Origin: Candidatus Omnitrophota bacterium
GTDB taxonomy: Bacteria > Omnitrophota > Gorgyraeia > Gygaellales > Profunditerraquicolaceae
Assembly (NCBI GenBank): GCA_016782485.1
Contig: JADHYK010000003.1
Location: 1 to 46,396, forward strand
Length of the DNA: 46,396 nt
Direction of reading: 5' to 3'
Positions 11,477-45,640 of the stretch are shown piece after piece; the first letter of the stretch is position 1; each line of letters starts with the position of its first letter. Position numbers and translations under genes: made by a program. The notes below the pieces were generated by a model, which saw nothing but the letters and a program-made list of their open reading frames with translations, had not been told where the DNA came from and searched no databases.

Positions 11477-11598
11477 AGATCCTTCGCCCTTCACTTCGTC
11501 CTTCGCCATGCTCAGGACTCGATGGACGATTCTGAACAAAGTGAAGAATCTCGCACATTGACTTACGCTCCTTTGTAGTCGCATAAGTCAACCGCTCA
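11477..11598 (+). repeat. Composite palindromic element (family copy 1)
   Basis: AGATCCTTCG; GTCCTTCG-ccatg-CTCAGGAC; GATTCTGAACAAAGTGAAGAATC; TCGCACA-TTGACTTA...TAAGTCAA-CCGCTCA. Confidence 0.8.
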
Positions 11599-11608
11599 TA
11601 AAATTTAT

Positions 11609-11636
11609 TTGACTTAATAAAAAAATATGGTATACT
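11609..11636 (+). promoter_or_regulatory. rplM-rpsI promoter
   Basis: TTGACT-16-TATACT with an extended TG; the ATG follows 9 nt later with no SD. Confidence 0.65.
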
Positions 11637-11645
11637 TTTAACTCT

Positions 11646-12077
11646 ATGAATAAGACCTTCGAACCTAAAAAAACAGACGTAAAGCTGCAGTGGTATCTGG
11701 TAGATGCCAGGGATAAGATATTGGGCAGGCTTGCTGCCCGGGTGGCTACGATATTAAGGGGCAAACACAAGGCTATTTTTAGCCCGCACCTGGATACCGG
11801 TGATGGCGTGATTGTGATAAACGCATCAAGAATTAAGGTTACCGGAAGAAAACTTAAAAATAAGGTATACCGGCGTTATTCCGGTTACCCCGGAGGCCTG
11901 CGAGAAGTAACCCTGGAAAACATGCTTAAAAATAAACCCGCTACGGTTATCCAGTTAGCTGTGGAGCGCATGTTGCCCAAAGGGCATTTAAGCAGAAAGA
12001 TGCTTAAGAAATTAAAGGTTTACGTTGACGAAAAGCATCCCCATCAAGATCAAAAACCGGTTATTCTGGAGGTATAG
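11646..12077 (+). CDS. rplM: 50S ribosomal protein L13
   Basis: WYLVDARDKILGRLA, LRGKHK, PHLDTGD and SGYPGGL motifs. Confidence 0.98.
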   Translation: MNKTFEPKKTDVKLQWYLVDARDKILGRLAARVATILRGKHKAIFSPHLDTGDGVIVINASRIKVTGRKLKNKVYRRYSGYPGGLREVTLENMLKNKPATVIQLAVERMLPKGHLSRKMLKKLKVYVDEKHPHQDQKPVILEV

Positions 12078-12089
12078 TGAATTTAAGCT

Positions 12090-12182
12090 AGATCCTTCGT
12101 CCGCCATAAATCTTGGCGGACTCAGGATTAATTCGCGCATTAACTTACTCGCACTATCGTGTTCGTAAGTTAAGCGCTCATT
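12090..12182 (+). repeat. Composite palindromic element (copy 2) between rplM and rpsI
   Basis: Module A: AGATCCTTCG-TCCGCCA taaatct TGGCGGA-CTCAGGAT. Module B: TTCGCGCA-TTAACTTAC...GTAAGTTAA-GCGCTCA. Confidence 0.85.
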
Positions 12183-12187
12183 AAGTT

Positions 12188-12583
12188 ATGGACGAAACGA
12201 AAAAATATACGGCAGTGGGAAGGCGTAAGGAATCGGTGGCCAGTGTGCGGCTTTTCCCCGGTAAAGGCGATATTACGGTAAACCGGAGGCCTTATGAAAA
12301 GTATTTTCTGCGCGAGACCGACAGGATTATCATCAAGCAGCCTTTGGTTATAACCAATAATACGGATAAATTCGATATTATTGCCAATATTAAAGGCGGG
12401 GGGCTTACCGGACAGGCGGGCGCTTTGAGGCTGGGTATTGCCCGTATCCTGATGTCAATAGAGCCGCAGCTGAAGGATGTTTTGCGTAAACAGGGGTTCT
12501 TAACGCGCGACCCGCGCATGAAGGAGCGCAAGAAATACGGCTTAAAGGGCGCGCGCAGGCGCTTCCAGTGGACTAAGAGATAG
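12188..12583 (+). CDS. rpsI: 30S ribosomal protein S9
   Basis: GRRKESVA, GGGLTGQAGA and LTRDPRMKERKKYGLKGARRRFQWTKR. Confidence 0.98.
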   Translation: MDETKKYTAVGRRKESVASVRLFPGKGDITVNRRPYEKYFLRETDRIIIKQPLVITNNTDKFDIIANIKGGGLTGQAGALRLGIARILMSIEPQLKDVLRKQGFLTRDPRMKERKKYGLKGARRRFQWTKR

Positions 12584-12622
12584 GAGGACGTTGAGAGGAA
12601 ATTAAAAATCCGATTTTTCTTT

Positions 12623-12650
12623 AAATCCCGCTGGAAGAGCGGGATTTTTT
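12623..12650 (+). terminator. Intrinsic terminator after rpsI
   Basis: AAATCCCGCT-ggaag-AGCGGGATTT followed by a T run. Confidence 0.8.
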
Positions 12651-12755
12651 ATTTGCCCTGTTCCGGGGTATTACTCGCGGAATGGGAACTACCCCTGTCA
12701 CTCTTCTCGTCCTGATATCTCCTGCTGCGGCTTTGTTCACGCGCTAAAATTTTCG

Positions 12756-12922
12756 CAAAGGGAACTGCCCCCTGTTACTCTTCTCGCTCAAGTCGCTTTT
12801 GCCTTTCGTTTTGCTCAAGGCCGGCAAAGGTCTCTCGTCCGCCACAGTACTTTGGCGGACTCAAGCATGCTTTGCCTAAAAGCTCCATTCGCTGCGAAGA
12901 GTGCCAGGTGCATTTCCCTTTG
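12756..12922. repeat. Large branched palindromic element
   Basis: CAAAGGGAActgccccctgttACTCTTC pairs with GAAGAGTgccaggtgcatTTCCCTTTG; contains TCGTCCGCCA...TGGCGGACTCA (12835-63), as in copy 2. Confidence 0.75.
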
Positions 12923-12929
12923 TTGACGA

Positions 12930-13104
12930 AACCTCAAGCCCCGGCTCTGAACGAACATAAGGCGCGCAGGAGCATGTATATGAGGCGAGACTTTTTAGGG
13001 CTTCTCTTCTATGAAACCCCCTGTGGGGGATGGGGGGACCCACCCAAAAAGTCGAGACGAATGCGACGAGCACCGCAGTGAGAGAAGAGCCGGGGGTTGA
13101 GGTT
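12930..13104. repeat. Second large branched palindromic element
   Basis: AACCTCAAGCCCCGGCTCT / AGAGCCGGGGGTTGAGGTT terminal inverted repeat (18/19); inner GACTTTTT/AAAAAGTC stem. Confidence 0.75.
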
Positions 13105-13179
13105 GAGATAGTGGAAGAGTAATTATTGTTTAACCTTAACGAGATGTTGCAATTATCAATGTATCGACGAGAAAAATAC

Positions 13180-13208
13180 TTGACGTCGACGGTTTTTTGG
13201 CTTAATAT
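13180..13208 (+). promoter_or_regulatory. Promoter of the arg/lys cluster
   Basis: TTGACG-17-TAATAT, then an AAAGGAG RBS before the ATG at 13234. Confidence 0.55.
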
Positions 13209-13233
13209 GAACCTGATATCTAAAGGAGTGGAA

Positions 13234-14256
13234 ATGATTAACGTAGCTATAATGGGCGCAACCGGTTACGCAGGAGAGGAATTAATCGGCATTCTTCTTA
13301 GGCATCCCGGGGTGCGCATTAAAAATATTTCGGCAAAAATTGAGGCACCCGCCAGAATATCCCGGATTTACCCGAAGTTTCAAAATAGAATAGACCTGGT
13401 CTGTGCCGAACCGGACCTCAAAGAAATTATTGCCTCTTGCGACTTAGTCTTTCTGGCTCTGCCGCATACGGTCTCAATGGAGTTCGTCCCCAAATTAATC
13501 AAAGCGGGTAAAAGGGTTATTGACCTGAGCGCCGACTACAGGTTTAAAGATGCGGCAGTTTACGAAAAACACTATAACCACAGGCATAAAGATAAAACAC
13601 TATTGCCGGCTGCCGTTTTTGGCCTGCCGGAAATTTACCGGGCCAGGATTAAAACAGCTAGACTTATCGCTAACCCCGGCTGTTACCCGACGGCAAGCAT
13701 ATTGGGGCTGGGGCCGCTGGCGGCTTTTGGTTTAGTTGAGCCGGGCTCCATAATCATTGACGCAAAATCAGGGGTAACCGGCGCAGGAAGAAAAATGAGC
13801 GAGAGTTTTCTTTTCCCGCAGATTAATGAGGATTTTAAGGCCTACAAAGTGGATGTTCATCAGCATGCCCCGGAGATTGACCAGGAGTTGTCGAAATTAG
13901 CCGGTAAAAAATTGAAAGTGACCTTTGTGCCGCATTTATTGCCGTTAAACAGAGGAATTTTAGCAACCATCTATGCCAGGAAAACGCCGGCTAAACAGCG
14001 GGCGAAAGAGAAATTGGCCAGCCTGTACAGGAAATTTTATAAAAAAGAACCCTTTGTAAGAATAAGAGATGAAGGGGAATTCCCCGCGTTAAAGGATGTT
14101 GCCGGGACCAATTTCTGCGATATCGGGATTAAGGAAAGCGCTGAATGCATAATCGTCATCGCTGCCATCGATAATTTATTGAAAGGCGCATCCGGCCAGG
14201 CAGTGCAGAACATGAATATCATGTATGGCTTTGCGGAGGATACGGCCCTGTTATGA
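13234..14256 (+). CDS. argC: N-acetyl-gamma-glutamyl-phosphate reductase
   Basis: GATGYAG, ALPH, IANPGCYPT and DNLLKGASGQAVQNMN; start moved to ATG 13234 (RBS) rather than the ORF-track 13126. Confidence 0.96.
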   Translation: MINVAIMGATGYAGEELIGILLRHPGVRIKNISAKIEAPARISRIYPKFQNRIDLVCAEPDLKEIIASCDLVFLALPHTVSMEFVPKLIKAGKRVIDLSADYRFKDAAVYEKHYNHRHKDKTLLPAAVFGLPEIYRARIKTARLIANPGCYPTASILGLGPLAAFGLVEPGSIIIDAKSGVTGAGRKMSESFLFPQINEDFKAYKVDVHQHAPEIDQELSKLAGKKLKVTFVPHLLPLNRGILATIYARKTPAKQRAKEKLASLYRKFYKKEPFVRIRDEGEFPALKDVAGTNFCDIGIKESAECIIVIAAIDNLLKGASGQAVQNMNIMYGFAEDTALL

Positions 14257-15389
14257 TCATCTCTAAAAAGGCGATTCTGCCTTTAGGTTTTAAGGCCGGT
14301 GCTGTCTCCTGCGGTTTAAAGAAGTCGGGTAAACCGGATTTAGCGCTTTTTTATTCGCAAGTCCCCGCAAAGGCCGCCTGTTTATTTACCGCCAATAAAA
14401 TTCAGGCTGCTCCTATTAAGGTAAGCAAGAGGCACCTTGCGGCCCATAAGGAATTCCGGGCGATTATAGTCAATAGCGGCAATGCCAATGCCTTCACGGG
14501 AAACAAAGGGATTATTGACGCTAATACCACAGCCGAAAGTTTAGCCGCAGTCCTGGGAATAGAGAAGAAAAGTATCCTTGTAGGCTCGACGGGCATTATC
14601 GGCAGGAGGCTGGAGGTTTCCAAGATAAAAAGCCGCCTGCCGGAGCTGGTCAGCGGCTTGTCAGAACAGGGCATAAATAATGCCAAAAGGGCGATAATGA
14701 CAACCGATACTTTTACGAAAGAGATTACCGTCCGCTTCGCTATCGGAAAGCAGAAAGTTACCCTCTGCGGTATTGCCAAGGGTGCAGGTATGATCGCTCC
14801 TGAGCTGGCGACGATGCTGGTATTTATTTTTAGTGACGCCAATATCAGCGCCGGGGCGTTAGAGAGGGCATTGCAGGAAGCGGCAGAGAGTTCTTTCAAC
14901 TGTATCAGCGTAGACGGATGCATGAGCACCAACGACAGCGTGTTCTTGCTGGCAAACGGCGCTTCAGGGTGCGCCTTAATAGATAATCAGAAGAATTTTA
15001 ATCTTTTTTCCAATGCCCTGAATAAGGTTTGCCTGGAGCTGGCAAAATTGATTATCCGGGATGCCGAGGGGGCAACTAAATTTATTAAGATCCAAGTCGG
15101 CAGGGCAAAGAATTATGCCCAGGCAAAAAAAGCGGCGTTAGCCATCGCCAACTCCGTGCTATTTAAGACCGCTATCTACGGGGAAAATCCCAATTTCGGC
15201 AGGATTGTCGCCGCAATCGGCTCAAGCGGGATAGAGGTAAGAGAAAAAGACTTAAATATTAGATTAAGCTCTTTAAATAAAAGAGAAATAAATGTATATG
15301 TGTCTCTTCAGAGAGGAAAAGCAAGCGCGACGGTTTATACATCGGATTTGACACCGGAGTATGTGAAGATAAACGCGGAATATAACTAA
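14253..15389 (+). CDS. argJ: Glutamate N-acetyltransferase / ornithine acetyltransferase
   Basis: NSGNANAFTG, STGIIG, KGAGMIAPELATML (autocleavage Thr) and DLTPEYVKINAEY. Confidence 0.95.
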   Translation: MIISKKAILPLGFKAGAVSCGLKKSGKPDLALFYSQVPAKAACLFTANKIQAAPIKVSKRHLAAHKEFRAIIVNSGNANAFTGNKGIIDANTTAESLAAVLGIEKKSILVGSTGIIGRRLEVSKIKSRLPELVSGLSEQGINNAKRAIMTTDTFTKEITVRFAIGKQKVTLCGIAKGAGMIAPELATMLVFIFSDANISAGALERALQEAAESSFNCISVDGCMSTNDSVFLLANGASGCALIDNQKNFNLFSNALNKVCLELAKLIIRDAEGATKFIKIQVGRAKNYAQAKKAALAIANSVLFKTAIYGENPNFGRIVAAIGSSGIEVREKDLNIRLSSLNKREINVYVSLQRGKASATVYTSDLTPEYVKINAEYN

Positions 15390-15480
15390 GTGAGGGCACA
15401 ACTTATGGAACGACAGTGAACATAAGTTGTCTAGCCGAACTTATCCTGAGTCCTTAAGCGAAGCCAAGGACGAAGGATCT
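15390..15480 (-). repeat. Composite palindromic element (copy 3, inverted)
   Basis: GTGAGGGC-ACAACTTATG...CATAAGTTGT-..GCCGAAC followed by ATCCTGAG-TCCTT aaGCGAAGCc AAGGA-CGAAGGATCT. Confidence 0.85.
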
Positions 15481-15493
15481 TAAGTGAGGACTG

Positions 15494-16348
15494 ATGGAAG
15501 AGGCGATTAAAAAGGCGGAGGTCCTGATCGAGGCGCTGCCTTATATCAAGAAGTTCCATAAGAAGGTAATCGTAGTCAAATACGGCGGCAGCATCCTGGG
15601 CGATACAAAAATCCGCAAAGGCGTATTAGAGGATATAGTTTTTTTGAGTTTCGTCGGATTAAGGGTGGTCCTGGTGCACGGCGGGGGCCCGAATATCAGC
15701 GACCGCATGCGCGCAACCAAGAAAAAGACGGATTTTGTGGACGGGATGCGGGTTACCGACGAGGAGACCCTGAAAGTCGTAGAGGAGGAACTGGAGCATT
15801 TAAACAGCACCATCGTTAAGGAGATATCAAAGCTGGGCGCAAAGGCCCGCGGCCTAAACGGCAAAGACAACAATATAATTCAGGTGGAGAAGAAAAAGGC
15901 AAATATAGATCTGGGGCTGGTAGGGCACATTGTCTCGGTAGATAAAGGGCCGATATTGGAAGAGTTGTACCAGCACGGAATAGTAGTTATTCTCCCCATG
16001 GGGATCGGTAAGGACAAGAGGGTTTATAACGTCAATGCCGATGAGGCGGCAGCGGCTGTCGCAGCTTTTTGCGAGGCGGAGAAATTAGTCCTGCTGACCA
16101 ATGTCAAGGGGATTATGCGTAACCCCGATGATGCGCATTCTTTTATGTCTACCCTTACCGCCAAAGAGGCAAAAGAGCTGGTTAAAAACAAGATCATCCA
16201 GCAGGGGATGATCCCCAAGGTCGATGCCTGTATCGAGGCTCTGGCTAAAGGGGTGAGCAAGACCCATATCATTGATGCGCGTATTCCTCACGGACTGCTT
16301 TTGGAGATATTTACCGACCAGGGCATAGGGACGGAGATCGTAAAATAA
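15494..16348 (+). CDS. argB: Acetylglutamate kinase
   Basis: EALPYI, VVKYGGS, VHGGGP, NVNAD and GMIPKV. Confidence 0.97.
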   Translation: MEEAIKKAEVLIEALPYIKKFHKKVIVVKYGGSILGDTKIRKGVLEDIVFLSFVGLRVVLVHGGGPNISDRMRATKKKTDFVDGMRVTDEETLKVVEEELEHLNSTIVKEISKLGAKARGLNGKDNNIIQVEKKKANIDLGLVGHIVSVDKGPILEELYQHGIVVILPMGIGKDKRVYNVNADEAAAAVAAFCEAEKLVLLTNVKGIMRNPDDAHSFMSTLTAKEAKELVKNKIIQQGMIPKVDACIEALAKGVSKTHIIDARIPHGLLLEIFTDQGIGTEIVK

Positions 16349-17526: not shown

Positions 17527-17547
17527 TAGATAGTAGTTAGTAGTTAG
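17520..17547 (+). repeat. TAG(T/A)TAG heptamer x4
   Basis: tagttag tagatag tagttag tagttag, containing the argD stop and followed by the argF RBS. Confidence 0.85.
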
Positions 17548-17555
17548 GGAGAGAG

Positions 17556-19699: not shown

Positions 19700-21085
19700 A
19701 TGAGTAAAAAACTTTGGGGTGGGAGGTTTAGTAAAAAGACAAACCCGTTGGTGGAAGATTTTACTAAGTCGATAGATGTAGATTATCTATTAGCAAGACA
19801 CGATATTATGGCTTCGCTAATACATACAAAAATATTGGCTAAGGCTAAGCTTATTTCTGAGCCGGAGTTTAAAATTCTGTATAAAGGCCTATCGGATATT
19901 CAGAATGAACTGGGCAAAGGCAAATTTAAATTTGATAAGAATTCAGAAGATATACATACAGATATACAGAATAAATTAGAAAGGAAAGTGGGTCCCGTGG
20001 CACTCAAATTGCATACTGCTAGATCAAGAAATGAGCAGGTAGTTTTTGATACCAAGAGATACTGTGTTTTTGAAGTATGTAATATTATAAATAAATCAAT
20101 CGGTGATTTTATAAAACAGATTGAAAAATTCGCTAATACTCATAAAAATATTATAATGCCTGGTTATACGCATATGCAGCATGCGCAACCTGTCAAATTC
20201 AAAGATTATATTCTTGCTTATGCATATATGTTAAAGCGGGATTCAAAGAGATTAGAGGACTCTTTGCATAGATTGACATACCCCTTGGGTTCGGGAGCGT
20301 TAGCAGGAACATCTATGGAAGCGAAATTATATAATGAGGCTGCGAAGGAAATTGCTGAAAAAATGGACCATCCGTTTTTTAAAGTAGTGGAAAACACTAT
20401 AGATAATATTAGCGATAGAGATTTTATTATAGAAATTTTGAGTGCTCTGGCAATCCTTGGTATGCACCTTTCGAGGATGGCAGAAGATTTTATTATTTGG
20501 TCAACGCAGGAATTCGGATTTATCGAAATAGACGATGCCTTTTGTACCGGTAGTTCTTTAATGCCACAGAAAAAGAATCCCGATACTTTAGAATTAATTA
20601 GGGGCCATACCGGAGAATTATACGGCAATTTAGTTTCGGTCCTTGTAATGATGAAGGGCTTGCCTTTAACTTATAACAGGGATATGCAATTAGATAAAAA
20701 ACCATTATTCAGCTCAATAAAGATTATCAAAGATGAACTGGAAATCTTAACCAGATTGATAGCCGGCATAAAGATCAATAAAGTAAATATTAAGAGACAG
20801 CTGGAAGAAGAATCTTTATATGCTACAGATTTAGCCTTTTATTTAGCCAAAAATAAAGTTCCCTTCAGGAAGGCGCATGAGATTATAGGTAAATTGATAA
20901 AGGATTCGCTAGATTTAAATAGAAGAATAAAAGACATGAAAGATGAAGAGCTGAAGAAATACTCTCCGTTTATTAACGGGAAAGTCATAAAAAATATATT
21001 TAATCCGATAACATCGGTTAATTCAAAAAAATCCTTTTCAAAAAAAAATCTATCCTGTAGAGTAACGGTTGTTGAGCCCCGATAA
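19700..21085 (+). CDS. argH: Argininosuccinate lyase
   Basis: LWGGRF, HTARSRNEQ, PGYTHMQHAQP and GSSLMPQKKNPD; start at ATG 19700 after a GAGGGG RBS. Confidence 0.96.
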   Translation: MSKKLWGGRFSKKTNPLVEDFTKSIDVDYLLARHDIMASLIHTKILAKAKLISEPEFKILYKGLSDIQNELGKGKFKFDKNSEDIHTDIQNKLERKVGPVALKLHTARSRNEQVVFDTKRYCVFEVCNIINKSIGDFIKQIEKFANTHKNIIMPGYTHMQHAQPVKFKDYILAYAYMLKRDSKRLEDSLHRLTYPLGSGALAGTSMEAKLYNEAAKEIAEKMDHPFFKVVENTIDNISDRDFIIEILSALAILGMHLSRMAEDFIIWSTQEFGFIEIDDAFCTGSSLMPQKKNPDTLELIRGHTGELYGNLVSVLVMMKGLPLTYNRDMQLDKKPLFSSIKIIKDELEILTRLIAGIKINKVNIKRQLEEESLYATDLAFYLAKNKVPFRKAHEIIGKLIKDSLDLNRRIKDMKDEELKKYSPFINGKVIKNIFNPITSVNSKKSFSKKNLSCRVTVVEPR

Positions 21086-21089
21086 TTAA

Positions 21090-21626
21090 ATGAGATACCG
21101 TAGTATTTTTCATCTCGCCTGCGAGGTATTTAAGAGGGAAGGTATTCGCGCTGTTTTGATTGGCGGCTTTGCGGTGAATTACTATAAGGTAACGCGCCAG
21201 AGCGCGGATGTTGATTTTTTAATTACCGAAGAGGATTTTAAGAAGATACTGCCTTTGTTTGAAGAGCAAGGATATAAGATAGATTATGCGCAGGAGGTAT
21301 TCGCCAGGCTCAAGAGCGACAATTTTTACCTGATGGATCTTGATTTCATGTTTGTGGATAGAGACACTCTGGATAAAATTGTTAAGGCAGCTAAAGTAGT
21401 CGCAATAGCCGAGCAGAAATTTATCGTTCCTTCTTTAGAGCATTTAATCGCGCTTAAGTTACATTCGTTGAAATATAATCCGGCATTGCGCGAGAATAAA
21501 GACCTCTCTGACATCGTTGAGTTGATTAGAATAAATAAAATGCAGGTAAAAACCAAGGAATTCAAGGAATTATGTCTTAAATTTGGCACAAAAGAACTCT
21601 ACGATAAAATTTTGCAAAAGATATAA
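21090..21626 (+). CDS. Minimal nucleotidyltransferase-fold protein (putative toxin-antitoxin component)
   Basis: LIGGFAVNYY..RQSADVDFL (GG...R..DxD), LIALKL and KDLSDI. Confidence 0.8.
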   Translation: MRYRSIFHLACEVFKREGIRAVLIGGFAVNYYKVTRQSADVDFLITEEDFKKILPLFEEQGYKIDYAQEVFARLKSDNFYLMDLDFMFVDRDTLDKIVKAAKVVAIAEQKFIVPSLEHLIALKLHSLKYNPALRENKDLSDIVELIRINKMQVKTKEFKELCLKFGTKELYDKILQKI

Positions 21627-21800
21627 ATGGAAGATTTAAAATTACCCATTATTAAAAAACCTTTACCTGCCGCCAAATGGCTGTCTATGGATGATTACGT
21701 AAGGTTCGTGACAATGAATATAAGATATACTTTGGATAAAAGAAATTACCGTAAATGGAAAAAATTAGCGGCTGTTAAAGAGAAATTCTCATTAGAATAA
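21627..21800 (+). CDS. 57-aa basic protein, partner of the nucleotidyltransferase (not in ORF track)
   Basis: MEDLKLPIIKKPLPAAKWLSMDDYVRFVTMNIRYTLDKRNYRKWKKLAAVKEKFSLE*; abuts the upstream stop (TAAATG) and ends 1 nt before lysA. Confidence 0.7.
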   Translation: MEDLKLPIIKKPLPAAKWLSMDDYVRFVTMNIRYTLDKRNYRKWKKLAAVKEKFSLE

Positions 21801-21801
21801 T

Positions 21802-23073
21802 ATGCACGAATTTAGATACATAAATAACCGGTTATATTGTGAGAAGGTCAAAGTTGAGGAGCTGGCGAGAAAGTTCGGTACCCCGCTTTATGTTTACAGC
21901 TACCACACCATGCTGGACCATTTTCATAAATTGCAGGCCGCCTTCAGGAGCGTGAAACCGCTCGTCTGTTATTCGGTCAAGGCAAACTCAAATTTAGCAA
22001 TCCTGAAGGCATTGGTGGATAAGGGTGCCGGCCTGGATATTGTTTCAGGCGGAGAGTTATACCGGGCGCTTAAAGCCGGGTGTCCTGCGCAAAAAATCGT
22101 CTATGCCTCGGTAGGCAAGACCGATAAAGAGATAGAAGAGGCGGTAAAGAAAGGGATACTTTTTTTTAACGTTGAATCCCTCCCGGAGCTGGAGAATATC
22201 AACCGTATCGCCGGGCGTTTTAAAAGACCCGTCAATGTGGCATTGCGCATAAACCCGGATGTGGAACCTAAAACGCATAAATTCATCACTACCGGAAAGA
22301 TTACTAATAAATTCGGCATTGATTTTGCAGTGGCTCGCAGGATTCTTTTATTGCGCCGGAGTTTGTGCAATATAAAAATCTGCGGCCTGCATATCCATAT
22401 CGGTTCCCAGATTACCGAGAGCGCGCCTTTTGTCGCCGCGATAAAAAAAGTCATCGCTTTCCTGGCAAGAATGAAGAATGAAGGCGTGACCCTGGAATAT
22501 TTAAACCTCGGCGGCGGCCTGGGGATAGTCTATGATAACGAGAAGCCGCAGACGGCAGTTAAATTTGCCGCTCAAGTTTTGCCGCTGTTGAAGAGAACCG
22601 GCCTCAAAGTTATTATGGAGCCGGGAAGGTTTATTATCGGTAACGCCGGAATTCTGGTGGCCAGGGTGTTGTATTGTAAATCTACGCCCAGAAAGAGATT
22701 CGTCATCGTTGATGCCGGAATGAATGATTTAATCCGGCCCTCTTTTTACAATGCCTACCACCAGATCCTGCCTATCCGCTATCCGCTATCCGCTATCCGC
22801 TATACGGAAAAAGTGGATATCGTCGGGCCGATCTGCGAAAGCGGGGATTTTTTTGCCAAAGACAGGCGCCTCCCCCGATTAAAAGAGGGGGATTTTATCG
22901 CGGTGATGAGCGCAGGGGCCTATGGTTTCAGTATGTCCTCCAACTATAATTCCCGGCGCAGGGCTAAAGAGGTTATGGTGGTCAAAGATAAGGCCTTCGT
23001 GATCAGAAAAAGGGAGAGTTTCCAGGATTTATTGCGTAACGAAATAATCCCCGCGTTTTTAATGGGGTTATAA
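21802..23073 (+). CDS. lysA: Diaminopimelate decarboxylase
   Basis: YSVKANSN, HIHIGSQ, LGGGLG, EPGRF and GPICESGD. Confidence 0.97.
   Translation: MHEFRYINNRLYCEKVKVEELARKFGTPLYVYSYHTMLDHFHKLQAAFRSVKPLVCYSVKANSNLAILKALVDKGAGLDIVSGGELYRALKAGCPAQKIVYASVGKTDKEIEEAVKKGILFFNVESLPELENINRIAGRFKRPVNVALRINPDVEPKTHKFITTGKITNKFGIDFAVARRILLLRRSLCNIKICGLHIHIGSQITESAPFVAAIKKVIAFLARMKNEGVTLEYLNLGGGLGIVYDNEKPQTAVKFAAQVLPLLKRTGLKVIMEPGRFIIGNAGILVARVLYCKSTPRKRFVIVDAGMNDLIRPSFYNAYHQILPIRYPLSAIRYTEKVDIVGPICESGDFFAKDRRLPRLKEGDFIAVMSAGAYGFSMSSNYNSRRRAKEVMVVKDKAFVIRKRESFQDLLRNEIIPAFLMGL
22772..22806 (+). repeat. CTATCCG x4 + CTATACG heptamer tract inside lysA
   Basis: Read directly; encodes PIRYPLSAIRYT. Confidence 0.9.
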
Positions 23074-23074: not shown

Positions 23075-24106
23075 ATGGGAAAAATCAATCCTTCGAAAGC
23101 CCGGGCTAAAGCCCACGATTTACTCAGGATTGATACTGAGAGCGGCGTATTCTTTCCACGTCCTAAAGGGCGGGGTTCCAACGCCGCCGAATGTATCAAT
23201 CCTTCGAAAGCCCGGGCTAAAGCCCACGATTTACTCAGGATTGATACTGAGAGCGGCGTATTCTTTCCACGTCCTAAAGGGCGGGGTTCCAACGCCGCCG
23301 AATGTATCAATTTTACCAAAATGGTTGCCTCAGGTAATGACTTTATTGTGGTTGAGCGCCTGGCCAATCTGCCGGCCTCCCGGTTTAAAAAGACAGTGAG
23401 AGAGATTTGTGATAGAAAATACGCCGTAGGGGCAGACGGGGTGCTTTTGCTGGAGAAGTCTAAAAATGCGGATATCAGAATGCGCATCTTTAATGCCGAC
23501 GGCTCCGAGGCAGAAATGTGCGGCAACGGGGCGCGCTGTATTGCGTTATACATAAGCCGCAGGGGGAGTGCGCAGAAAAAAATAGAGACGATGGCCGGGA
23601 TAATCCAAGCGCAGGTAAACGGCGATAACGTAAAGATAAAGCTCACCGACCCCAAAGATATAAAACTGGATATTTCCCTTAAAGTCAACAACCGCGAGCT
23701 GGCAGTCAATTTTATCAATACCGGTGTCCCGCATACGGTGATCTTCGTAGAGGGCCTGCAGAATATAGACGTATTTGATTTAGGCAGGCAGATCCGTTAT
23801 CATAAAAAGTTTGCCCCGGCAGGGACGAACGTAGATTTTGTAGAAGTCTTCAATAATGATTCTATAGGGGTGAGGACCTACGAGAGGGGCGTCGAGGGGG
23901 AGACCCTTGCCTGCGGCACGGGAGTAGTTGCTGCGGCGTTAATTGCCGATTATAAGTTAAGAGCCGCAGATTTTAGAAAGATAAACGTGAAGACAAGAAG
24001 CGGGGAGGTATTGAGGGTATATTTTGAGAGGGTAGGCAGCGGTTTTGAAAATGTCTGGCTTGAGGGCAGGGTAAAAATAGCCTATACGGGGGCAATAAAG
24101 ATTTAG
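23075..24106 (+). CDS. dapF: Diaminopimelate epimerase with a 74-aa N-terminal insertion
   Basis: FTKMVASGNDF, AEMCGNGARC, GVPH, GTNVDF, TYERG and TLACGTG. Confidence 0.93.
   Translation: MGKINPSKARAKAHDLLRIDTESGVFFPRPKGRGSNAAECINPSKARAKAHDLLRIDTESGVFFPRPKGRGSNAAECINFTKMVASGNDFIVVERLANLPASRFKKTVREICDRKYAVGADGVLLLEKSKNADIRMRIFNADGSEAEMCGNGARCIALYISRRGSAQKKIETMAGIIQAQVNGDNVKIKLTDPKDIKLDISLKVNNRELAVNFINTGVPHTVIFVEGLQNIDVFDLGRQIRYHKKFAPAGTNVDFVEVFNNDSIGVRTYERGVEGETLACGTGVVAAALIADYKLRAADFRKINVKTRSGEVLRVYFERVGSGFENVWLEGRVKIAYTGAIKI
23084..23305 (+). repeat. Two identical tandem 111-bp palindromic elements in frame in dapF
   Basis: 23084-23194 equals 23195-23305; followed by ATCAAT, identical to the first 6 nt of the unit. 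Confidence 0.95.
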
Positions 24107-24997: not shown

Positions 24998-25063
24998 TAG
25001 CGTTTAGCGGATAGCGTTTAGCGTATAGAAAAACTATCCGCTATACGCTCTACGCTATACGCC
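24998..25063. repeat. Inverted heptamer array (TAGCGNN / CTATNCG) hairpin
   Basis: tagcgtt tagcgga tagcgtt tagcgta tag -aaaaa- cta tccgcta tacgctc tacgcta tacgcc. Confidence 0.88.
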
Positions 25064-25077
25064 AACAGGAGAACAGC

Positions 25078-25824: not shown

Positions 25825-27009
25825 ATGTTTAAGGTTTCTAAAAGATTGAATTCACTTCCGCCGTATCTCTTTTTAGAGATTGATAAGGCAAAGAGAATTG
25901 CCCGGGCAGCAGGCAGGGATATTATCGATTTAGGTATAGGCGACCCTGACTGGCCCACGCCGAAATATATTATCGAAGCGCTGTATCAAGCGGCACATGA
26001 TCCGGCAACTCACCGTTATGCCCTTGACCAGGGGATGCCGGCGCTGCGGCGCTCTATTCAAGGCTGGTATCAGCGCAGATTTGCCGTTGAACTTAATCCC
26101 GACAGCGAAATCCTTCCTTTAATCGGTTCAAAAGAAGGCATCGCACATTTCCCCCTGGCCTTTATAAATGAAGGTGATTATTCGTTAGTGCCCGATCCCT
26201 GCTATCCTCCTTATAAAGGGGGAACAATTTTTGCCGGCGGCAGGCCGTATCTATTGCCGCTACTAGAGTCAAACGGCTTTTTACCGGATTTAGCAAAAAT
26301 CCCGCTTCATATCCGTAAGAAAGCCAGGTTAATCTACCTTAATTATCCCAATAACCCTACCGGTGCTACGGCAGAAAAAGACTTTTACCGGGAGGTTATC
26401 GCTTTTGCAAAAAAGAACAAAATTATTGTTATCTCAGACCTTGCCTATTCAGAGTTGAGCTACGAAGGCTATCAGCCCGCAAGCCTCCTGGAGGTCGAGG
26501 GCGCAAAGGATGTGGCAATAGAATTTCATTCGCTTTCTAAAACCTATAATATGACCGGCTGGCGCATCGGCTGGGCCTGCGGCAACCATAATCTGGTATC
26601 CGCGTTAGGTAAAGTCAAGTCCAACATTGATTCCGGTATATTCTCGGCGATTCAATTAGCAGGCATTGCTGCCCTGGAGGGGCCGGATGAGGATATCAGC
26701 AAAATGCGCAGCCTTTATCAACAGAGGCGCGATACCCTGATTGCAGGCTTAAGGTCTCTGGGCTGGCAGGTAACACCGCCCAGGGCGACCTTTTACGTGT
26801 GGATAAAAATTCCTAAAAAAACAGATTCCGTCAGATTCAGCTCCTTATTATTGGAAAAGGCGGATATCATTGTTACGCCCGGAGTGGGGTTCGGTAAATA
26901 CGGCGAGGGCTACATCAGGATAGCGCTTACCGTTGGGGAAGAGAGGATTAAAGAAGCGGTAAGGCGGTTAGAAAAAGTAATTGAGGCCAAAACTTATGGA
27001 ACAAAGTGA
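25825..27009 (+). CDS. dapL: LL-diaminopimelate aminotransferase
   Basis: PPYLFLEID, LGIGDPD, GSKEGIAH, NYPNNPTGA and SLSKTYNMTGWRIG; lies in the dap cluster, which lacks dapD/dapE. Confidence 0.88.
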   Translation: MFKVSKRLNSLPPYLFLEIDKAKRIARAAGRDIIDLGIGDPDWPTPKYIIEALYQAAHDPATHRYALDQGMPALRRSIQGWYQRRFAVELNPDSEILPLIGSKEGIAHFPLAFINEGDYSLVPDPCYPPYKGGTIFAGGRPYLLPLLESNGFLPDLAKIPLHIRKKARLIYLNYPNNPTGATAEKDFYREVIAFAKKNKIIVISDLAYSELSYEGYQPASLLEVEGAKDVAIEFHSLSKTYNMTGWRIGWACGNHNLVSALGKVKSNIDSGIFSAIQLAGIAALEGPDEDISKMRSLYQQRRDTLIAGLRSLGWQVTPPRATFYVWIKIPKKTDSVRFSSLLLEKADIIVTPGVGFGKYGEGYIRIALTVGEERIKEAVRRLEKVIEAKTYGTK

Positions 27010-27071
27010 ACATAAGTTTTATGGCCGAACTTATCCTGAGGCCGCCAGGGTTTATGGCGGACGAAGGATCT
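26982..27071 (-). repeat. Composite palindromic element (copy 4, inverted) overlapping the dapL 3' end
   Basis: TGAGGCC-AAAACTTATG gaacaaagtgaa CATAAGTTTT-atGGCCGAAC followed by ATCCTGAG-gCCGCCA...TGGCGGa-CGAAGGATCT. Confidence 0.88.
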
Positions 27072-27081
27072 CAACATTGAA

Positions 27082-28338: not shown

Positions 28339-29169
28339 ATGGGTAAGAGCAAGAGGTTAAAAATAGGCATTGTCGGTTGCGGCGCTATCGGCAGTTCCAT
28401 GGCAAAGTTCATCGTCAAGAAGCTTTTCTCCCAGGCGCAGCTATCCGCACTTTATGACCTGGATGCCTCAAAGATTAAGAAGCTTGCAAAGTCAGTTTCT
28501 AAAAAAAGGGATTTAGCGGCGGGGAGCCTCGGGGATTTGATTGCCGAATCTCAATTGGTAGTCGAGGCGGCTTCTGCACTAAGCTCGCGGGAGATTGCCC
28601 GGCGCGCCTTGTCTATGGGCCGCGATGTTATGATTATGAGCACAGGGGGCGTTGCCGGCAGCCTTAAGGAATTAAGCCTGCTGGCAAAGAAGAATAACGC
28701 CAGGGTTTACATCCCAAGCGGGGCTATCTGTGGGGTGGATGCCCTGAAGGCCGCCAAGTTAGGCAGGATTAAAAGCGTTACTTTGACCACGCGCAAAAAC
28801 CCGCGCTCTTTTAAAGGGGTCAAATATGTAGAGGAGCGCAGGATAAAACTTGCCGGGATAAAGAAAGAGACGGTATTATTTTCCGGTTCGGCCAGAGAGG
28901 CGGTAAGGCATTTTCCTCAGAACATCAACGTTGCCGCCGTATTAAGCCTTGCAGGTATCGGCCAGGACAGGACGCTGGTTAGATTGATTGCTTCACCCGG
29001 GACAAAAAGAAACATTCACGAAATTAAAATAGAGTCCGCCTCCGGAGATATCAGCACGCGCACGCAAAACCTATTGCATCCGGACAACCCCAAGACTAGC
29101 TTTTTAGCGGTATTGTCGGCGATGGCTGCCCTGAGGCAGATTCTGGAGCCGGTGAGGATAGGGACTTAA
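28339..29169 (+). CDS. nadX: L-aspartate dehydrogenase (NAD biosynthesis)
   Basis: GCGAIG, PSGAICGVDA, FPQNINVAA and NPKTS. Confidence 0.88.
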   Translation: MGKSKRLKIGIVGCGAIGSSMAKFIVKKLFSQAQLSALYDLDASKIKKLAKSVSKKRDLAAGSLGDLIAESQLVVEAASALSSREIARRALSMGRDVMIMSTGGVAGSLKELSLLAKKNNARVYIPSGAICGVDALKAAKLGRIKSVTLTTRKNPRSFKGVKYVEERRIKLAGIKKETVLFSGSAREAVRHFPQNINVAAVLSLAGIGQDRTLVRLIASPGTKRNIHEIKIESASGDISTRTQNLLHPDNPKTSFLAVLSAMAALRQILEPVRIGT

Positions 29170-29294
29170 GTGAGGCCATAAGTTATGGAGCGTAAGCGAA
29201 CATAACTTATCTGGCCGAACTTATCCGCCGTAGGCGGATTTAATTCACACAATAACTTACTCACACTGACGTGTTCGTAAGTTATGTGTTCATT
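29170..29294. repeat. Back-to-back module-B elements flanking ATCCGCCGTAGGCGGAT (copy 5)
   Basis: GTGAGGCC-ATAAGTTATG..CATAACTTAT-ctGGCCGAAC (29170-220); palindrome at 29223-39; TTCACACA-ATAACTTAC..GTAAGTTAT-GTGTTCA (29244-292). Confidence 0.88.
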
Positions 29295-29317
29295 AAAGAG
29301 AGGGGGTGAATCAGAAT

Positions 29318-37310: not shown

Positions 37311-37311
37311 C

Positions 37312-37716: not shown

Positions 37717-37782
37717 GCCCGCCCCTCATTCACAACGCAATTACCTTTTTCAAGATTACCCAATTTTCTAAATTCGCATACC

Positions 37783-37876
37783 GTCATTGCGAGGAGCCCG
37801 AGCATAGCGAGGGCGACGAAGCAATCCAACTAATGGGATTGCTTCGCCCCTCACTTTGTTCGGGGCTCGCAATGAC
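37783..37876. repeat. 94-bp REP/MITE-like palindrome
   Basis: GTCATTGCGAG/CTCGCAATGAC termini; inner CGAAGCAATCC/GGATTGCTTCG; side hairpins including TCACTTTGTTC. Confidence 0.9.
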
Positions 37877-40368: not shown

Positions 40369-40370
40369 TT

Positions 40371-42493: not shown

Positions 42494-44220
42494 TGCCCGA
42501 TAACAGAGAGGGATATTTAAAATTAGGTGAAATCCTGCTTAAGGAAGGCCTGATTACTGCCAGGCAACTGGAAGAGGCGATCAGCGTTCAAAGGCAGAAA
42601 GGGGGCCGTTTAGGCGAGATCATGGTAAAATTGGGGATGATTAAGGAGGAGCAGATAGTAGGCGCTCTTGATAAGCAATTAAGCATCCCTTATTTTTCTT
42701 CAGGGACGGCAAGTTTAAAACCCGCTCCTGATCAGGGGCTGGAGCGCCTTGTCCCTCAGGAATTCGCATTCAAGAATGCAGTTATCCCCCTTTCGCGCAC
42801 TTTAAGGTCGCTGACGGTAGCCATGGCTGATCCTCTGGACCTTATCCTCATCGATAATTTAAGAAAAATAACCGGCTGCGAGATTAATCCTGTTATTGCC
42901 ACCAAATCCGATATCACCAAGGCCATCGTAGAGTTTTACGGAAAGTCGGCGATGTTTAATGAAGCGGTAGAAGCCAGTTATGCCCTTAAGCCCGTTGATA
43001 CTGCCGTCGAAGGGGAGGTATCAGTCGACCAGGAATTAAGTTTAGATAAGTTAATCGCCCGCGCCGAAGAGGCGCCGGTAGTAAAATTAGTTGACCTGAT
43101 AATACGCCAGGCAATCGATGAGCACGCCTCCGATATCCATATCGAACCTTTCAAGGATAAGATTTCTCTGCGCTACCGTATTGACGGCAAGCTTTACGAA
43201 ATCCCCCCTCCTGCAAGGCATTTGCATGTTTCGATAATCTCGCGTATAAAAATATTATCGCGTATGGATATTGCCGAGAAGCGCCTGCCTCAGGACGGTG
43301 CGTTTCTGGTAAAGATAGACGAGCGGCCCATAGACATTAGAGTTTCCACCATACCCACTATCTACGGCGAAAAGATAGTGATGAGGCTGCTGGACAGAAG
43401 CCAGGTGGTCTTAGACCTTAATTTGCTGGGTTTTGATCCCAGTCAGCTTGAATATATACGCAAAGGCATAAGCGCTCCCTATGGCCTGGTATTTTTAACC
43501 GGCCCCACCGGCAGCGGAAAAACTACAACTTTATATGCGATATTAAACGAGATAAAAGGGGCCGCCAAGAACATCATAACTATTGAGGATCCGGTGGAAT
43601 ATAAATTAGAGGGGATTAATCAGGTTCAGGTTAAGCCGGAGATCGGGCTTACCTTTGCGACGGCATTACGCAGTTTTTTAAGGCAGGACCCCGATATAAT
43701 GCTGGTAGGCGAAGTACGAGACCTTGAGACCGCACAAATCTGTATCCGCTCCGCTTTAACCGGGCACTTGGTTTTAAGCACCCTGCATACCAATGACGCC
43801 CCTTCGGCAGTAACCCGGCTTATGGATATCGGTATTGAGTCTTATATGCTTGGGCCTTCATTATTGGCCATCGTGGCACAACGCCTGGTAAGGAAGCTTT
43901 GTCCGGATTGTAAAGAAGCATATGAACCGAACCAGGAGCAGATAAAAAGCGTAAATCTTAAGGCAGAGCTGATATACCGGGCCAGGGGCTGCAGTAAGTG
44001 CAACAAGGTAGGCTATAGGGGCAGGATTTGCGTTGCCGAGGTCATGGTTATTAACGAAGAGATCCGTGATTTGATTAATCAGAAGGCTTCCTTCCAGAGA
44101 ATAAGGGAAGTAGCCAAGGCTAACGGCATGAGTACACTCTATGACTCAGCGATCAAAAAAGTAGAAAAGGGAATAACCTCGCTGGAAGAGGCTTTATCCG
44201 TCACGCTGGGAGAGGAATAA
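42493..44220 (+). CDS. pilB: PilB/GspE assembly ATPase
   Basis: MshEN-like N-terminus (KLGEILL, RLGEIMV), ASDIHIEP, GPTGSGKTTT, RQDPDIMLVGEVRD and a zinc motif. Confidence 0.93.
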   Translation: MPDNREGYLKLGEILLKEGLITARQLEEAISVQRQKGGRLGEIMVKLGMIKEEQIVGALDKQLSIPYFSSGTASLKPAPDQGLERLVPQEFAFKNAVIPLSRTLRSLTVAMADPLDLILIDNLRKITGCEINPVIATKSDITKAIVEFYGKSAMFNEAVEASYALKPVDTAVEGEVSVDQELSLDKLIARAEEAPVVKLVDLIIRQAIDEHASDIHIEPFKDKISLRYRIDGKLYEIPPPARHLHVSIISRIKILSRMDIAEKRLPQDGAFLVKIDERPIDIRVSTIPTIYGEKIVMRLLDRSQVVLDLNLLGFDPSQLEYIRKGISAPYGLVFLTGPTGSGKTTTLYAILNEIKGAAKNIITIEDPVEYKLEGINQVQVKPEIGLTFATALRSFLRQDPDIMLVGEVRDLETAQICIRSALTGHLVLSTLHTNDAPSAVTRLMDIGIESYMLGPSLLAIVAQRLVRKLCPDCKEAYEPNQEQIKSVNLKAELIYRARGCSKCNKVGYRGRICVAEVMVINEEIRDLINQKASFQRIREVAKANGMSTLYDSAIKKVEKGITSLEEALSVTLGEE

Positions 44221-44222
44221 AA

Positions 44223-45461
44223 ATGGCGAAGTTCTTTTATATAGCAAGGGATAAAGCGGGCAGGAAGGAAACCGGCGTTATAGAGGCCCCGAACCAGGAC
44301 GATGTGATCAGCCGGTTGCATGCGAAAGCATTGATTGTGATCAGCATCTTTGCTGAACACGAGCAGGCCATAACCGCCGTAGCTGCCGATGCCATAGGTA
44401 AAAAAAAACACAGGTGGAAACGTTACCGCATTACCAATGATGACCTGGTTATTTTATGCCGGCAGTTAGCCACGCTTTTGGGCGCCGGAGTCACCATACT
44501 GAAAAGCCTGGATATTATCGCACAGCAGGTAACCAGCCGCAGGCTTTATAATATAATAAAGGACCTTGAAAAAAACATGGAGGCCGGCCTTAGTTTCCAT
44601 GCTGCAGTTACAAGGCATCCGGATATATTTTCCGAGCTATGGACTAACCTTATAGAGAGCGGGGAGGCTTCAGGAAGTCTGGCGATGGTATTGAGCCGCC
44701 TGGCCGCTTATCTTGAGCGCAATGCGGCTTTTAAAAGAAAGGTTGTCTCCGCGCTCATCTATCCTGTAATACTTCTATTGGCCGGTACAGGGGCATTATT
44801 TTTTCTCACCTTTAAAATAATTCCTACCTTTGCGGAGTTATTCAAGGGGTTTGGCATTACCCTGCCGTTTTTGACGCGCCTGTTGATTGCAGGCAGCAAC
44901 TTCCTTAAAAGCAACGTACTCATAATCATCGGCCTGGTTATTTCTATTTTCTGGATTATACGTAAATACCTGAAGACAAAAATAGGACGGAGAAAGTTTG
45001 AGGAATTTGCCTTTACCTTACCGGTATTTGGGGATTTTTTCAGGGCTTTGGTTGTGGAAAGATTTTCTTCAGGAATGTCCACGCTGATTGAAAGCGGCGT
45101 ACCCATAATCTATTCTTTGCAGATAACCGAACACACCGTAGCCAATCTGGTGTTATCCGATATTGTCCGGGGGATCAAAGAGGCGGTGCGTGACGGAAAG
45201 TCGTTGAGCCAACAGCTGGAAAAAAGCGACTTCTTTGAACCGATGGTGGTGCAGATGGTAAGGATCGGCGAGGAAATCGGAGAACTGCCGGATATGTTTA
45301 AGAGAATCAATGCCTTTTATCAGGAGTACGTGGAGACCTTCCTGACCAGGGTTACCTCTATGTTTGAACCCCTGATGCTTTTATTTATGGGGGTAGTGAT
45401 CGGCATAATGATTATCGGGATGTTCTTGCCGATATTCCAGATTGCGCAGATCGGGGGATAA
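44223..45461 (+). CDS. pilC: PilC/GspF inner-membrane platform protein
   Basis: RQLATLLGAGV, GEASGSL, ALIYP and GEEIGEL. Confidence 0.92.
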   Translation: MAKFFYIARDKAGRKETGVIEAPNQDDVISRLHAKALIVISIFAEHEQAITAVAADAIGKKKHRWKRYRITNDDLVILCRQLATLLGAGVTILKSLDIIAQQVTSRRLYNIIKDLEKNMEAGLSFHAAVTRHPDIFSELWTNLIESGEASGSLAMVLSRLAAYLERNAAFKRKVVSALIYPVILLLAGTGALFFLTFKIIPTFAELFKGFGITLPFLTRLLIAGSNFLKSNVLIIIGLVISIFWIIRKYLKTKIGRRKFEEFAFTLPVFGDFFRALVVERFSSGMSTLIESGVPIIYSLQITEHTVANLVLSDIVRGIKEAVRDGKSLSQQLEKSDFFEPMVVQMVRIGEEIGELPDMFKRINAFYQEYVETFLTRVTSMFEPLMLLFMGVVIGIMIIGMFLPIFQIAQIGG

Positions 45462-45538
45462 TTTTATTTTATTGACAAATGAGTGTGCGTATGTTATTTA
45501 TAAAAGTAGTTTCATTCCGATAGATAAGAGGCGACCTA

Positions 45539-45640
45539 TATCCCTCGCATAAGCGCTTGTAGATTTCTGGCGAAATCTACTGCGCACGCTTCGGGATAAA
45601 TTCGCACATTGATCCGCCGTAGGCGGATTAAGCGCTCATT
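45539..45640 (+). repeat. Composite palindromic element (copy 6) in the pilin leader
   Basis: TATCCCTCG..GTAGATTTC tggc GAAATCTAC..TTCGGGATA plus TTCGCACATTG-ATCCGCCGTAGGCGGAT-TAAGCGCTCATT. Confidence 0.82.

Follow-up and report, generated by a model that had tools for sequence, protein, structure and literature searches.

What are the short palindromic elements that lie between the genes of an Omnitrophota bacterium, and do they act in RNA, in duplex DNA or as a folded DNA strand? The question is raised by a contig of 46,396 nt (JADHYK010000003.1, hereafter the window) from a Candidatus Omnitrophota bacterium. The window is contig C46 of genome G000, which comprises 1.04 Mb in 62 contigs and is 89.8% complete. 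A sequence-only reading of the window had cited six intergenic places with modular, nested palindromes. All six hold the modules described, the first of them (11477–11601) in a degenerate state. On balance we favour, with limited confidence, the view that they are interspersed mosaic repeats acting at the DNA level, similar to repetitive extragenic palindromic (REP) sequences and bacterial interspersed mosaic elements (BIMEs), and that they may be moved by an enzyme not encoded beside them.

Two modules built on a common clamp

All modules follow a common plan, in which a foot of about 5 bp is followed by TGAG, a stem-loop, CGAA and the other half of the foot. TGAG facing CGAA pairs as U-A, G·A, A·G and G-C, which leaves a 2x2 internal loop. 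On one strand this loop opposes purines (a tandem G·A step), on the complement pyrimidines (TC/TC). This difference between the two arms of the clamp is identical in every copy. In DNA, Y-G-A-R steps adopt a stable, sheared tandem pairing.

The foot of module A is ATCC/GGAT, and its apex is variable and GC-rich. The exact A frame, ATCCTGAG..CGAAGGAT, comprises 16 invariant bases, so arranged that a 5-bp stem and the 2x2 G·A step enclose a variable hairpin of 8 to 38 nt. Module B is 57 nt long and consists of the foot T(A/T)A(A/G)T, the clamp, three to four GC pairs, a conserved bulge of 1–2 nt and an inner stem of the form ATAA(C/G)TTAYG; most copies have a second G·A step beneath the loop. 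Read into the clamp, A feet are thus ATCC-TGAG and B feet T(A/T)A(A/G)-TGAG. The two modules are often fused: in 24 of the 61 B copies of G000, an A lies directly 3' of B on the same strand, with one base in common.

Clamps can be nested and apical cassettes exchanged. The re-use of cassettes noticed earlier was confirmed for TCCGCC..GGCGGA (at 12100, 12838 and 27041) and for the hairpin at 29222, found again at 45602–45620. The match to the GAACAAAGTGA cassette at 37851 is also present, but it belongs to a different, CGTC-tagged doublet (37782–37876). The sequence-only reading had explained such mosaics by units inserting into one another, a possible reading, although recombination at the common 4-nt clamps would give an identical picture.

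An unbiased tally was made of all hairpins that enclose a 2x2 internal loop between an outer stem of 3 or more pairs and an inner stem of 5 or more, and the clamp stood out in it. Among 2178 such hairpins in G000, the two commonest loop classes were TGAG/CGAA (38) and its complement TTCG/CTCA (17), and the next class reached 11. Similarly, in G188, a closed Omnitrophota genome from another family of the same class, GA/GA (72) and TC/TC (63) were the top two dinucleotide loop classes among 4139 hairpins. The exact A pattern matched 51 times in G000, versus 0 for the reversed pattern, and a looser scan for clamped hairpins gave 153 matches, versus 30 in the reversed genome. For B, a covariance model (R1) built from 30 copies detected the 61 copies mentioned above at a cut-off of E ≤ 0.01. 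Copies occur genome-wide, and in both orientations as the earlier reading had claimed. Octamers of the type GCCGCAGG/CCTGCGGC and CCGGCAGG were found in G000 at about 9–10 times the frequency expected from base composition. A role as an uptake signal was considered for ATCCTGAG, which occurs 99 times versus about 31 expected in the genome, and was rejected: the excess consists of the modules themselves, and there is no genome-wide over-representation.

Covariation, which had been claimed from a few stems of the window, proved to be general. In alignment A1, 11 of 17 pairs showed two-sided changes, 99.2% of 506 cells were paired, and 94 two-sided changes stood against 6 one-sided (G·U) ones. 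Sliding the partners lowered pairing to 21–37%, and four of five measures were not reached by any shuffle. The outer helix of A1 was partly selected for by the scan, whereas the inner helix (helix 2) played no part in picking the sequences; in the latter, 5 of 8 pairs had two-sided changes and 99.6% of cells were paired. A further 29 copies, collected independently from 80 metagenome loci (alignment A3, fitted to the model), gave 98.1% pairing and 97 two-sided changes, with a one-sided (G·U) change in 4 of 482 cells. Finally, ten stretches were folded as DNA and compared with 200 shuffles each. Nine of them, which comprise two composites and intact modules read on one strand or on both, folded better than all of their shuffles (z from -2.7 to -7.7), the exception being the degenerate 11477–11535.

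Clamps also close four longer hairpins, of 133–157 nt (G000:C11:1258-1412, G000:C22:22877-23033, L017:439-580 and L038:2449-2581). Three of the four are closed by TTTG-TGAG-CGC..GCG-CGAA-CAAA, and the copy in L038 has a variant foot. These hairpins are conserved between genomes, have no match in Rfam, and could be a larger module or an unrecognised RNA.

Placement between genes and level of action

Composites take the form B-A...A'-B' and lie between a stop codon and the next start. The window holds one full composite (29167–29296) and several halves; elsewhere in G000, halves lie beside rpmI and 3' of the end of tRNA-Thr and of rpmG, and a tandem array with a 96-nt period occupies C60:5131-5418. 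The flanking genes are housekeeping genes. In G188 and in G182, many B matches form convergent pairs 100–350 nt apart, which consist of B, a middle hairpin and an inverted B and span the distance from the stop codon to the next ribosome-binding site. Near the tRNA-Thr half (G000:C39:30100-30900, minus strand), the last 20 nt of the tRNA gene and the B-A unit are duplicated 207 nt downstream; rpmG and tRNA-Trp follow, with clamp modules before each.

Orientation depends on position. Of 55 B copies between co-directional genes of G000, 29 were sense and 26 antisense; 15 of the former overlapped the upstream stop codon, and 23 of the latter lay 0–24 nt from the downstream start. Therefore, each B presents the 5' end of its G·A strand to the outside of the composite, in the manner of the ends of an inverted-repeat element. 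Where an A'-B' half adjoins a start codon, it lay within 4 nt of it in five of seven cases. The 25 unpaired B copies of G188 (15 sense, 10 antisense) behaved likewise and followed no replichore rule; with only one of them located between genes that oppose the leading strand, replication and transcription as frames of reference were separated only in part. In the same genome (G188:C1:800000-940000), most genes switch strand near 0.80 Mb and cumulative GC skew peaks near 0.94 Mb, so that over about 140 kb the genes run against the inferred leading strand.

Would the modules then be a structured non-coding or cis-regulatory RNA family? The strong covariation and the many copies inside operons fit this idea, and RNA commonly contains GNRA-like loops and tandem G·A steps. 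However, the two orientations are nearly equal in number, so that one copy in two would be transcribed with pyrimidine mismatches, and G·U pairs hardly occur. At gathering score there was no match to an Rfam family, none matched the modules at E up to 5, and none was found at E up to 1 in four extra regions of G000 and two related loci. Moreover, some copies come after terminators: in L052 a B-A unit has a terminator-like site on one side and promoter-like sites on the other, and in L004 one lies upstream of a promoter-like site and, as judged by eye, directly 3' of a terminator. Taken together, the orientations, the rarity of G·U, the lack of Rfam matches and the placement between terminators and promoters indicate an element acting at the DNA level, and we consider an RNA family extremely improbable. 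The fixed, strand-specific asymmetry of the clamp points further to a folded single strand rather than to duplex DNA.

Turnover, spread and the search for a mobilising enzyme

Gain and loss were examined against G001, a syntenic genome of the same genus, about 80% identical and the closest relative compared. The predicted empty sites were found: two of five orthologous sites are cleanly empty in G001. There, rplM and rpsI abut directly in place of the 111-nt spacer of G000, a difference due to an insertion or deletion, and the site equivalent to 26978–27081 is a TGATG stop/start overlap. Between argJ and argB, G001 has an unrelated 45-nt spacer, and at the site of 29167–29296 a different palindrome. 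Upstream of rplM, it has an intact A with a different cassette, and the B is truncated to its last 15 nt. G000 contains 51 A copies versus 11 in G001.

Long intergenic hairpins of another style were also seen in the window, at 7715–7842 (followed by a T-run) and 24999–25065, with arms made of runs of 6–7-nt units. Hairpins of the same style but different unit sequence occupy orthologous places in G001 (G001:C63:14791-14920 and G001:C46:40830-40899), and one such hairpin of G001 replaces the B composite of 29167–29296.

In an even sample of 151 Omnitrophota genomes, B was found in 99 (copy numbers per genome being minimum values) and the exact A frame in 89, with 0 control matches across all 151; B was found in none of 5 genomes from other phyla. 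The family had been taken to be defined by structure. It is indeed modular and structured, but structure alone does not define it: feet and clamps keep their exact bases, the A frame being exact in those 89 genomes and B recognisable in those 99. The number of A copies per genome ranges from 0 to 134, and the inner cassettes are lineage-specific, as seen in bursts of near-identical cassettes in G099 (48), G113 (75) and G068 (134). Outside the phylum, G190 (locus L055, titled Syntrophus sp.) contains 18 exact A frames with a nested cassette of its own and no B. In the literature covered on palindromic, REPIN (REP doublet) or structured-RNA motifs of Omnitrophota and on tandem G·A steps in REPs, which left out most subscription journals, these repeats were not described.

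Carriage of B by phages was also considered and rejected. A B-like pattern matched on 2 viral contigs, neither of which fits R1; the one examined (L338) has it inside an open reading frame (ORF), and R1 found no B on the viral contigs scanned. The A frame matched at least 119 stretches of viral contigs. We estimate roughly that a pattern of 16 bases with 31 possible gap lengths should give hundreds of matches by chance in a collection of this size, so that this count means nothing. Only tagged sites are informative here, and 30 of 90 A-frame sites (from the 80 loci returned) were preceded by CGTC, TGTC or CCTC.

Which enzyme could move such units? The sequence-only reading had proposed mobilisation in trans and named, among candidate mobilisers, HUH transposases of the type of the REP-associated tyrosine transposases (RAYTs). 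In classical REP/REPIN systems, a Y1 enzyme of this type mobilises the folded strand. Y1 genes occur widely in the phylum (122 of 151 genomes, with as many as 11 matches in one genome), inverted doublets resemble REPINs, and the logic of a folded strand suits HUH enzymes. However, G000 has no Y1, nor have 15 further genomes among the 99 with B. Three of these Y1-free genomes, G180, G160 and G082, are 93–96% complete and have 9 to 19 B copies (minimum counts). Y1 does not track B: the presence table was 83/16/39/13, with an odds ratio of 1.7 and p 0.2, uncorrected for kinship. In 30 Y1 loci of four element-rich genomes (88,169 bases), 0 B matches and 0 clamp hairpins were detected. One Y1 gene, on L124 in G077, is adjoined by two canonical GTAG-tagged palindromes (L124:1887-1945), the only place where a true GTAG doublet was seen, so that the phylum also has an ordinary REP-RAYT system; our modules have no GTAG tag. 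Some A modules of G000 (e.g. window 23088) have an inner hairpin similar to the palindromes of L124. According to the text of PMC6006769, some Y1 subclasses have no REP beside the gene, so that the absence of adjoining repeats does not settle the matter. Nonetheless, we regard mobilisation by a RAYT as rather improbable.

A second possibility is that the composites are miniature inverted-repeat transposable elements (MITEs) of a DDE transposon, with inverted B (or A) as terminal inverted repeats and TA-rich targets (TAA, TTAA). The composites are indeed bounded by inverted copies that read alike from the outside in (module arms are inverted, not direct, unlike the left-end and right-end hairpins of IS200/IS605 insertion sequences), and their ends often lie on TAA or TTAA. 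Flanks often share these bases, but no target duplication could be fixed by comparison with a genome about 80% identical, and one of the two empty sites of G001 has neither TAA nor TTAA. DDE_Tnp_1 (PF01609), rve (PF00665) and the TnpB zinc-ribbon (PF07282) were absent from G000, G188 and G053. No gene-bearing element bracketed by B was found in G188, where the only 1.6-kb pair encloses secE-nusG. Around the A copies of G068, no repeated ORF appeared among the 40 of 178 cross-locus BLASTP pairs listed, overlapping loci aside. Finally, a strand-asymmetric mismatch in every arm would have no role in duplex inverted repeats. A DDE origin is thus very unlikely.

Tyrosine-recombinase sites on folded strands, such as integron attC or the Xer sites used by CTX phage, offer a third model. 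Like attC, the modules have paired feet, an unpaired central step, bulged bases and a variable apex, are at least 57 nt long, diverse in sequence and conserved in structure, and come directly after stop codons. Xer-like recombinases were found in all 151 genomes, and for this very reason their co-occurrence carries no information. An integron integrase (TIGR02249) scored above cut-off in no more than 7 of 151 genomes, of which 5 have B and 2 lack it. Unlike attC sites, the copies are dispersed and not arrayed beside an integrase, and they are flanked by housekeeping genes (rplM, rpsI, argJ, argB, folK), not by cassettes. The module feet do not appear to fit the attC core consensus. This model has hardly any probability left in our estimation.

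A function for the host is a different kind of explanation. A conserved host protein would bind the hairpins, as gyrase, IHF or Pol I bind the BIMEs of E. coli, or the hairpins would stabilise, process or space cistrons in the transcript; their spread, by recombination or duplication, would be rare. In its favour, copies adjoin stop codons, start codons and the 3' end of a tRNA precisely, and the families of transposase tested are missing from genomes rich in elements. Where A'-B' adjoins a start codon, the B hairpin may also bring the terminal AGGA of A' to Shine-Dalgarno distance. On the other hand, the two empty sites of G001 indicate that the elements are dispensable, and they decay in place (11477–11601; the truncated B of G001). 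The A numbers vary from 51 to 11 within one genus, bursts of identical cassettes look like amplification, and some copies lie in terminator-promoter DNA that is probably not transcribed. We judge a host-serving role to be unlikely, although several observations speak for it.

Two of these weigh directly against mobile repeats. Feet that are base-perfect across a phylum are unusual for selfish DNA, and so is recurrence at the same places: the 80 metagenome loci around rplM gave 29 matches, clustered upstream of rplM and after rpsI. Both may reflect host function instead. Four further points bear on the proposal in the same sense. G000 has no match for Y1, DDE_Tnp_1, rve or TnpB at 89.8% completeness. 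No target-site duplication or exact junction could be defined with the one close relative at about 80% identity; the metagenome scan yielded no closer strain (best protein identity 79%), and in the contigs of four DNA sequencing runs no junction was usable at strain level, short contigs of these other samples ending at the repeats, where summed depth rises. There is a bias towards the modelled structure in model R1 and alignment A3, and gene positions were taken from our own crude ORF calls, not from a gene finder.

Relation to described repeats and the copies in the window

The likeness to REP/BIME elements noted in the sequence-only reading was apt. As in E. coli REP/BIMEs and Pseudomonas REPINs, imperfect palindromes occur in alternating orientation with defined linkers and in tandem arrays, lie between co-directional genes, and have the doublet as their apparent unit. 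Unlike them, they have no GTAG (GTRG) tag at the 5' end of the palindrome and no adjoining RAYT such as Pseudomonas REPINs have, and their feet are conserved across a phylum, not a species or genus.

A closer relative is the CGTC-tagged REP superfamily of Di Nocera, De Gregorio and Rocco (2013; PMC3733652), which according to the text of that paper includes Neisseria dRS3 and Rickettsia RPE-4 and RPE-6, has uninterrupted stems of 8–9 bp, loops of 4–5 nt and a CCA tail, and shows the tag variants TGTC and CCTC. Among 28 A copies of G068, the preceding tag was CGTC in 20 and TGTC or CCTC in 5 more, and the copies form inverted doublets, i.e. convergent pairs about 10–100 nt apart with unlike cassettes. 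As far as the text of PMC3733652 goes, the likeness extends to multicopy short extragenic stem-loops in several phyla with no dedicated transposase known, to an unpaired tag at one end (A in G068; the doublet 37782–37876), to a stem that opens with A-T, T-A, and to frequent inverted dimers of unlike partners (A in G068; the B pairs of G182 and G188). The differences from that description are the 5-bp foot with an invariant G·A step and a variable, often nested hairpin, a tail that is C(T/C)CG in G068, and, in G000, a tag replaced by fusion to B. Accordingly, the bases upstream of the 51 A copies of G000 are those of the B foot, their eight commonest 5-mers do not include the CGTC tag, and B has no such tag either.

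Because A carries the CGTC tag in other genomes such as G068, and the frame is also found outside the phylum, module A probably belongs with the CGTC-tagged REP-type repeats described in PMC3733652 and would then not be a new family as such. This comparison used the text of the paper; its figures and supplements, and those of PMC6006769, may list the frame. This likeness to a described family concerns one of the two modules; B was seen only in Omnitrophota among the genomes searched. The text of PMC3733652 also describes GTAG-24 REPs of Pseudomonas aeruginosa, with long stems in which every copy has unpaired G-A residues at one and the same position. They differ from our modules in having a GTAG tag, in belonging to a RAYT-linked superfamily, and in that the mismatch occupies one stem position and is not a clamp common to several modules. 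As far as our searches reach, what is new is a tandem G·A clamp common to the modules, a module B specific to Omnitrophota, the mosaic of B and A, and the occurrence of both frames across the phylum.

The copies of the window are listed in Table 1. Their neighbours are genes for a CHAT/TPR protein, rplM, rpsI, argJ, argB, an aminotransferase and folK, and further on an aspartate dehydrogenase, a type II secretion F protein and a pilin. The large ORFs of the window are all on the plus strand. Two A copies, 23088–23130 and 23199–23241, were absent from the earlier list. They belong to a tandem-duplicated unit of 111 nt (23085–23306) that combines an A module with a second clamp-closed hairpin. 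As this duplication lies within the first 230 nt of ORF 23075–24106, the real start of the latter is probably near 23322.

Table 1. Modules and related hairpins of the window, with score against model R1 and DNA folding result where available (z, relative to shuffles)
Feature	Position	Strand	Scores	Remarks
Degenerate nested A-type module	11477–11535	-	z -0.74; 42 of 200 shuffles as good	plus strand TTCG..CTCA; just 3' of the stop of the CHAT/TPR gene
Mini-hairpin with tandem G·A step (TGAA..TGAA) around loop CAAAG	11530–11548	+		seen in sequence; cassette also within A frames at C39:36323 and C45:10946
Degenerate B	11549–11601	-	no R1 match at E ≤ 0.01	ends 8 nt 5' of promoter-like TTGACT of rplM; intact B at equivalent position in at least 7 of 80 metagenome loci
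Module A	12092–12128	-	-12.4 kcal/mol, z -6.1	ATCC foot, tandem G·A clamp, TCCGCC..GGCGGA cassette
Module B	12128–12184	-	R1 68.1 bits; z -4.3	one base common with A; ends 4 nt before rpsI start codon
Degenerate A-like hairpin	12834–12864	-		TCCGCC cassette, decayed foot
Module B	15387–15443	+	R1 66.8 bits; z -5.2 (15387–15478, with A)	first three bases are the TAA stop of argJ
Module A, nested hairpin	15443–15478	+		16 nt before argB start
Module A, REP-like inner hairpin	23088–23130	-		first copy within 111-nt tandem duplication
Clamp-closed hairpin	23134–23195	+		TAC foot, TGAG..CGAA, GCGGCGT stem, 32-nt loop; inverted repeats found there
Module A	23199–23241	-		second copy of 111-nt duplication
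Clamp-closed hairpin	23245–23306	+		second copy of 23134–23195, from sequence
Module B	26978–27033	+	R1 69.2 bits	aminotransferase ORF enters B and stops in its loop
Module A	27033–27069	+		GCCGCC..GGCGGA cassette; 12 nt before folK start
Module B, left arm of composite	29167–29223	+	R1 75.5 bits; z -6.1; whole composite (29167–29296) -32.5 kcal/mol, z -7.7	starts on TAA stop of aspartate dehydrogenase
Plain middle hairpin of composite	29222–29238	.		cassette recurs at 45602–45620
Module B, right arm of composite	29240–29296	-	R1 62.2 bits	followed by Shine-Dalgarno-like run and next start codon
CGTC-tagged inverted doublet	37782–37876	.		variant foot ATTGC/GCAAT, tandem G·A architecture; compared by eye with G068 doublets
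A-type variant	45540–45597	-		ATCCC foot, CGAG-type clamp on minus strand, long inner hairpin
B foot, apex replaced by 29222-type cassette	45597–45642	-	R1 30.9 bits, E 0.002; z -2.7	13 nt before pilin gene start

The variant foot of the doublet 37782–37876 suggests that several A-type foot variants coexist. Two other regions of the window were noted. The stretch 12584–13125, about 540 nt without an ORF of 80 aa, lies 3' of the rpsI terminator and contains two similar direct repeats of about 40 nt together with the decayed A-like hairpin. The stretch 19900–22000 has a low G+C content (0.34–0.38 versus about 0.47 elsewhere) and is poorly conserved in G001.

Consider how such elements could work if they are indeed mosaic repeats acting at the DNA level. 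The basic unit would be a hairpin whose foot is locked by the tandem G·A step, with foot and clamp kept constant and the apex free to vary as long as it pairs. B and A would join head to tail, and two inverted units would enclose a middle part that varies, as in REP doublets, the 5' end of the G·A strand always facing the gene outside. Whole composites, or the halves that remain after a deletion, would fill the few dispensable bases from a stop codon, terminator or tRNA end to a promoter, ribosome-binding site or start. Units would be gained and lost between close relatives and amplified in lineage-specific bursts. A trans-acting enzyme, we infer, may recognise the folded strand with its sheared G·A step and copy or move the units.

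A bolder idea, which we put forward as speculation and think unlikely to be right in full, is that the G·A clamp marks an unrecognised mode of hairpin copying, in which a conserved enzyme, neither RAYT nor integron integrase, reads a sheared G·A step in a folded single strand and acts at the clamp. If this were true, any hairpin could be swapped or nested between TGAG and CGAA. It would explain the feet conserved throughout a phylum and beyond, the lineage-specific bursts of cassettes, the nested clamps and the lack of a transposase for CGTC-type REPs, and B would be an Omnitrophota-specific partner that sets the ends of composites.

The modules account for much of the intergenic DNA of Omnitrophota genomes, and they extend or cut ORF calls, 25825–27009 and 23075–24106 being apparent cases in the window. 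The origin and spread of REP-type repeats without a RAYT is the question on which, in its text, PMC3733652 closes. The family described here offers a handle on it, with an invariant frame of 16 bases, a strand-specific G·A step, exchangeable cassettes and 0 to 134 copies in related small genomes. Such a range of copy numbers would permit a search for the acting protein by phylogenetic profiling, combined with binding tests on short oligonucleotides.

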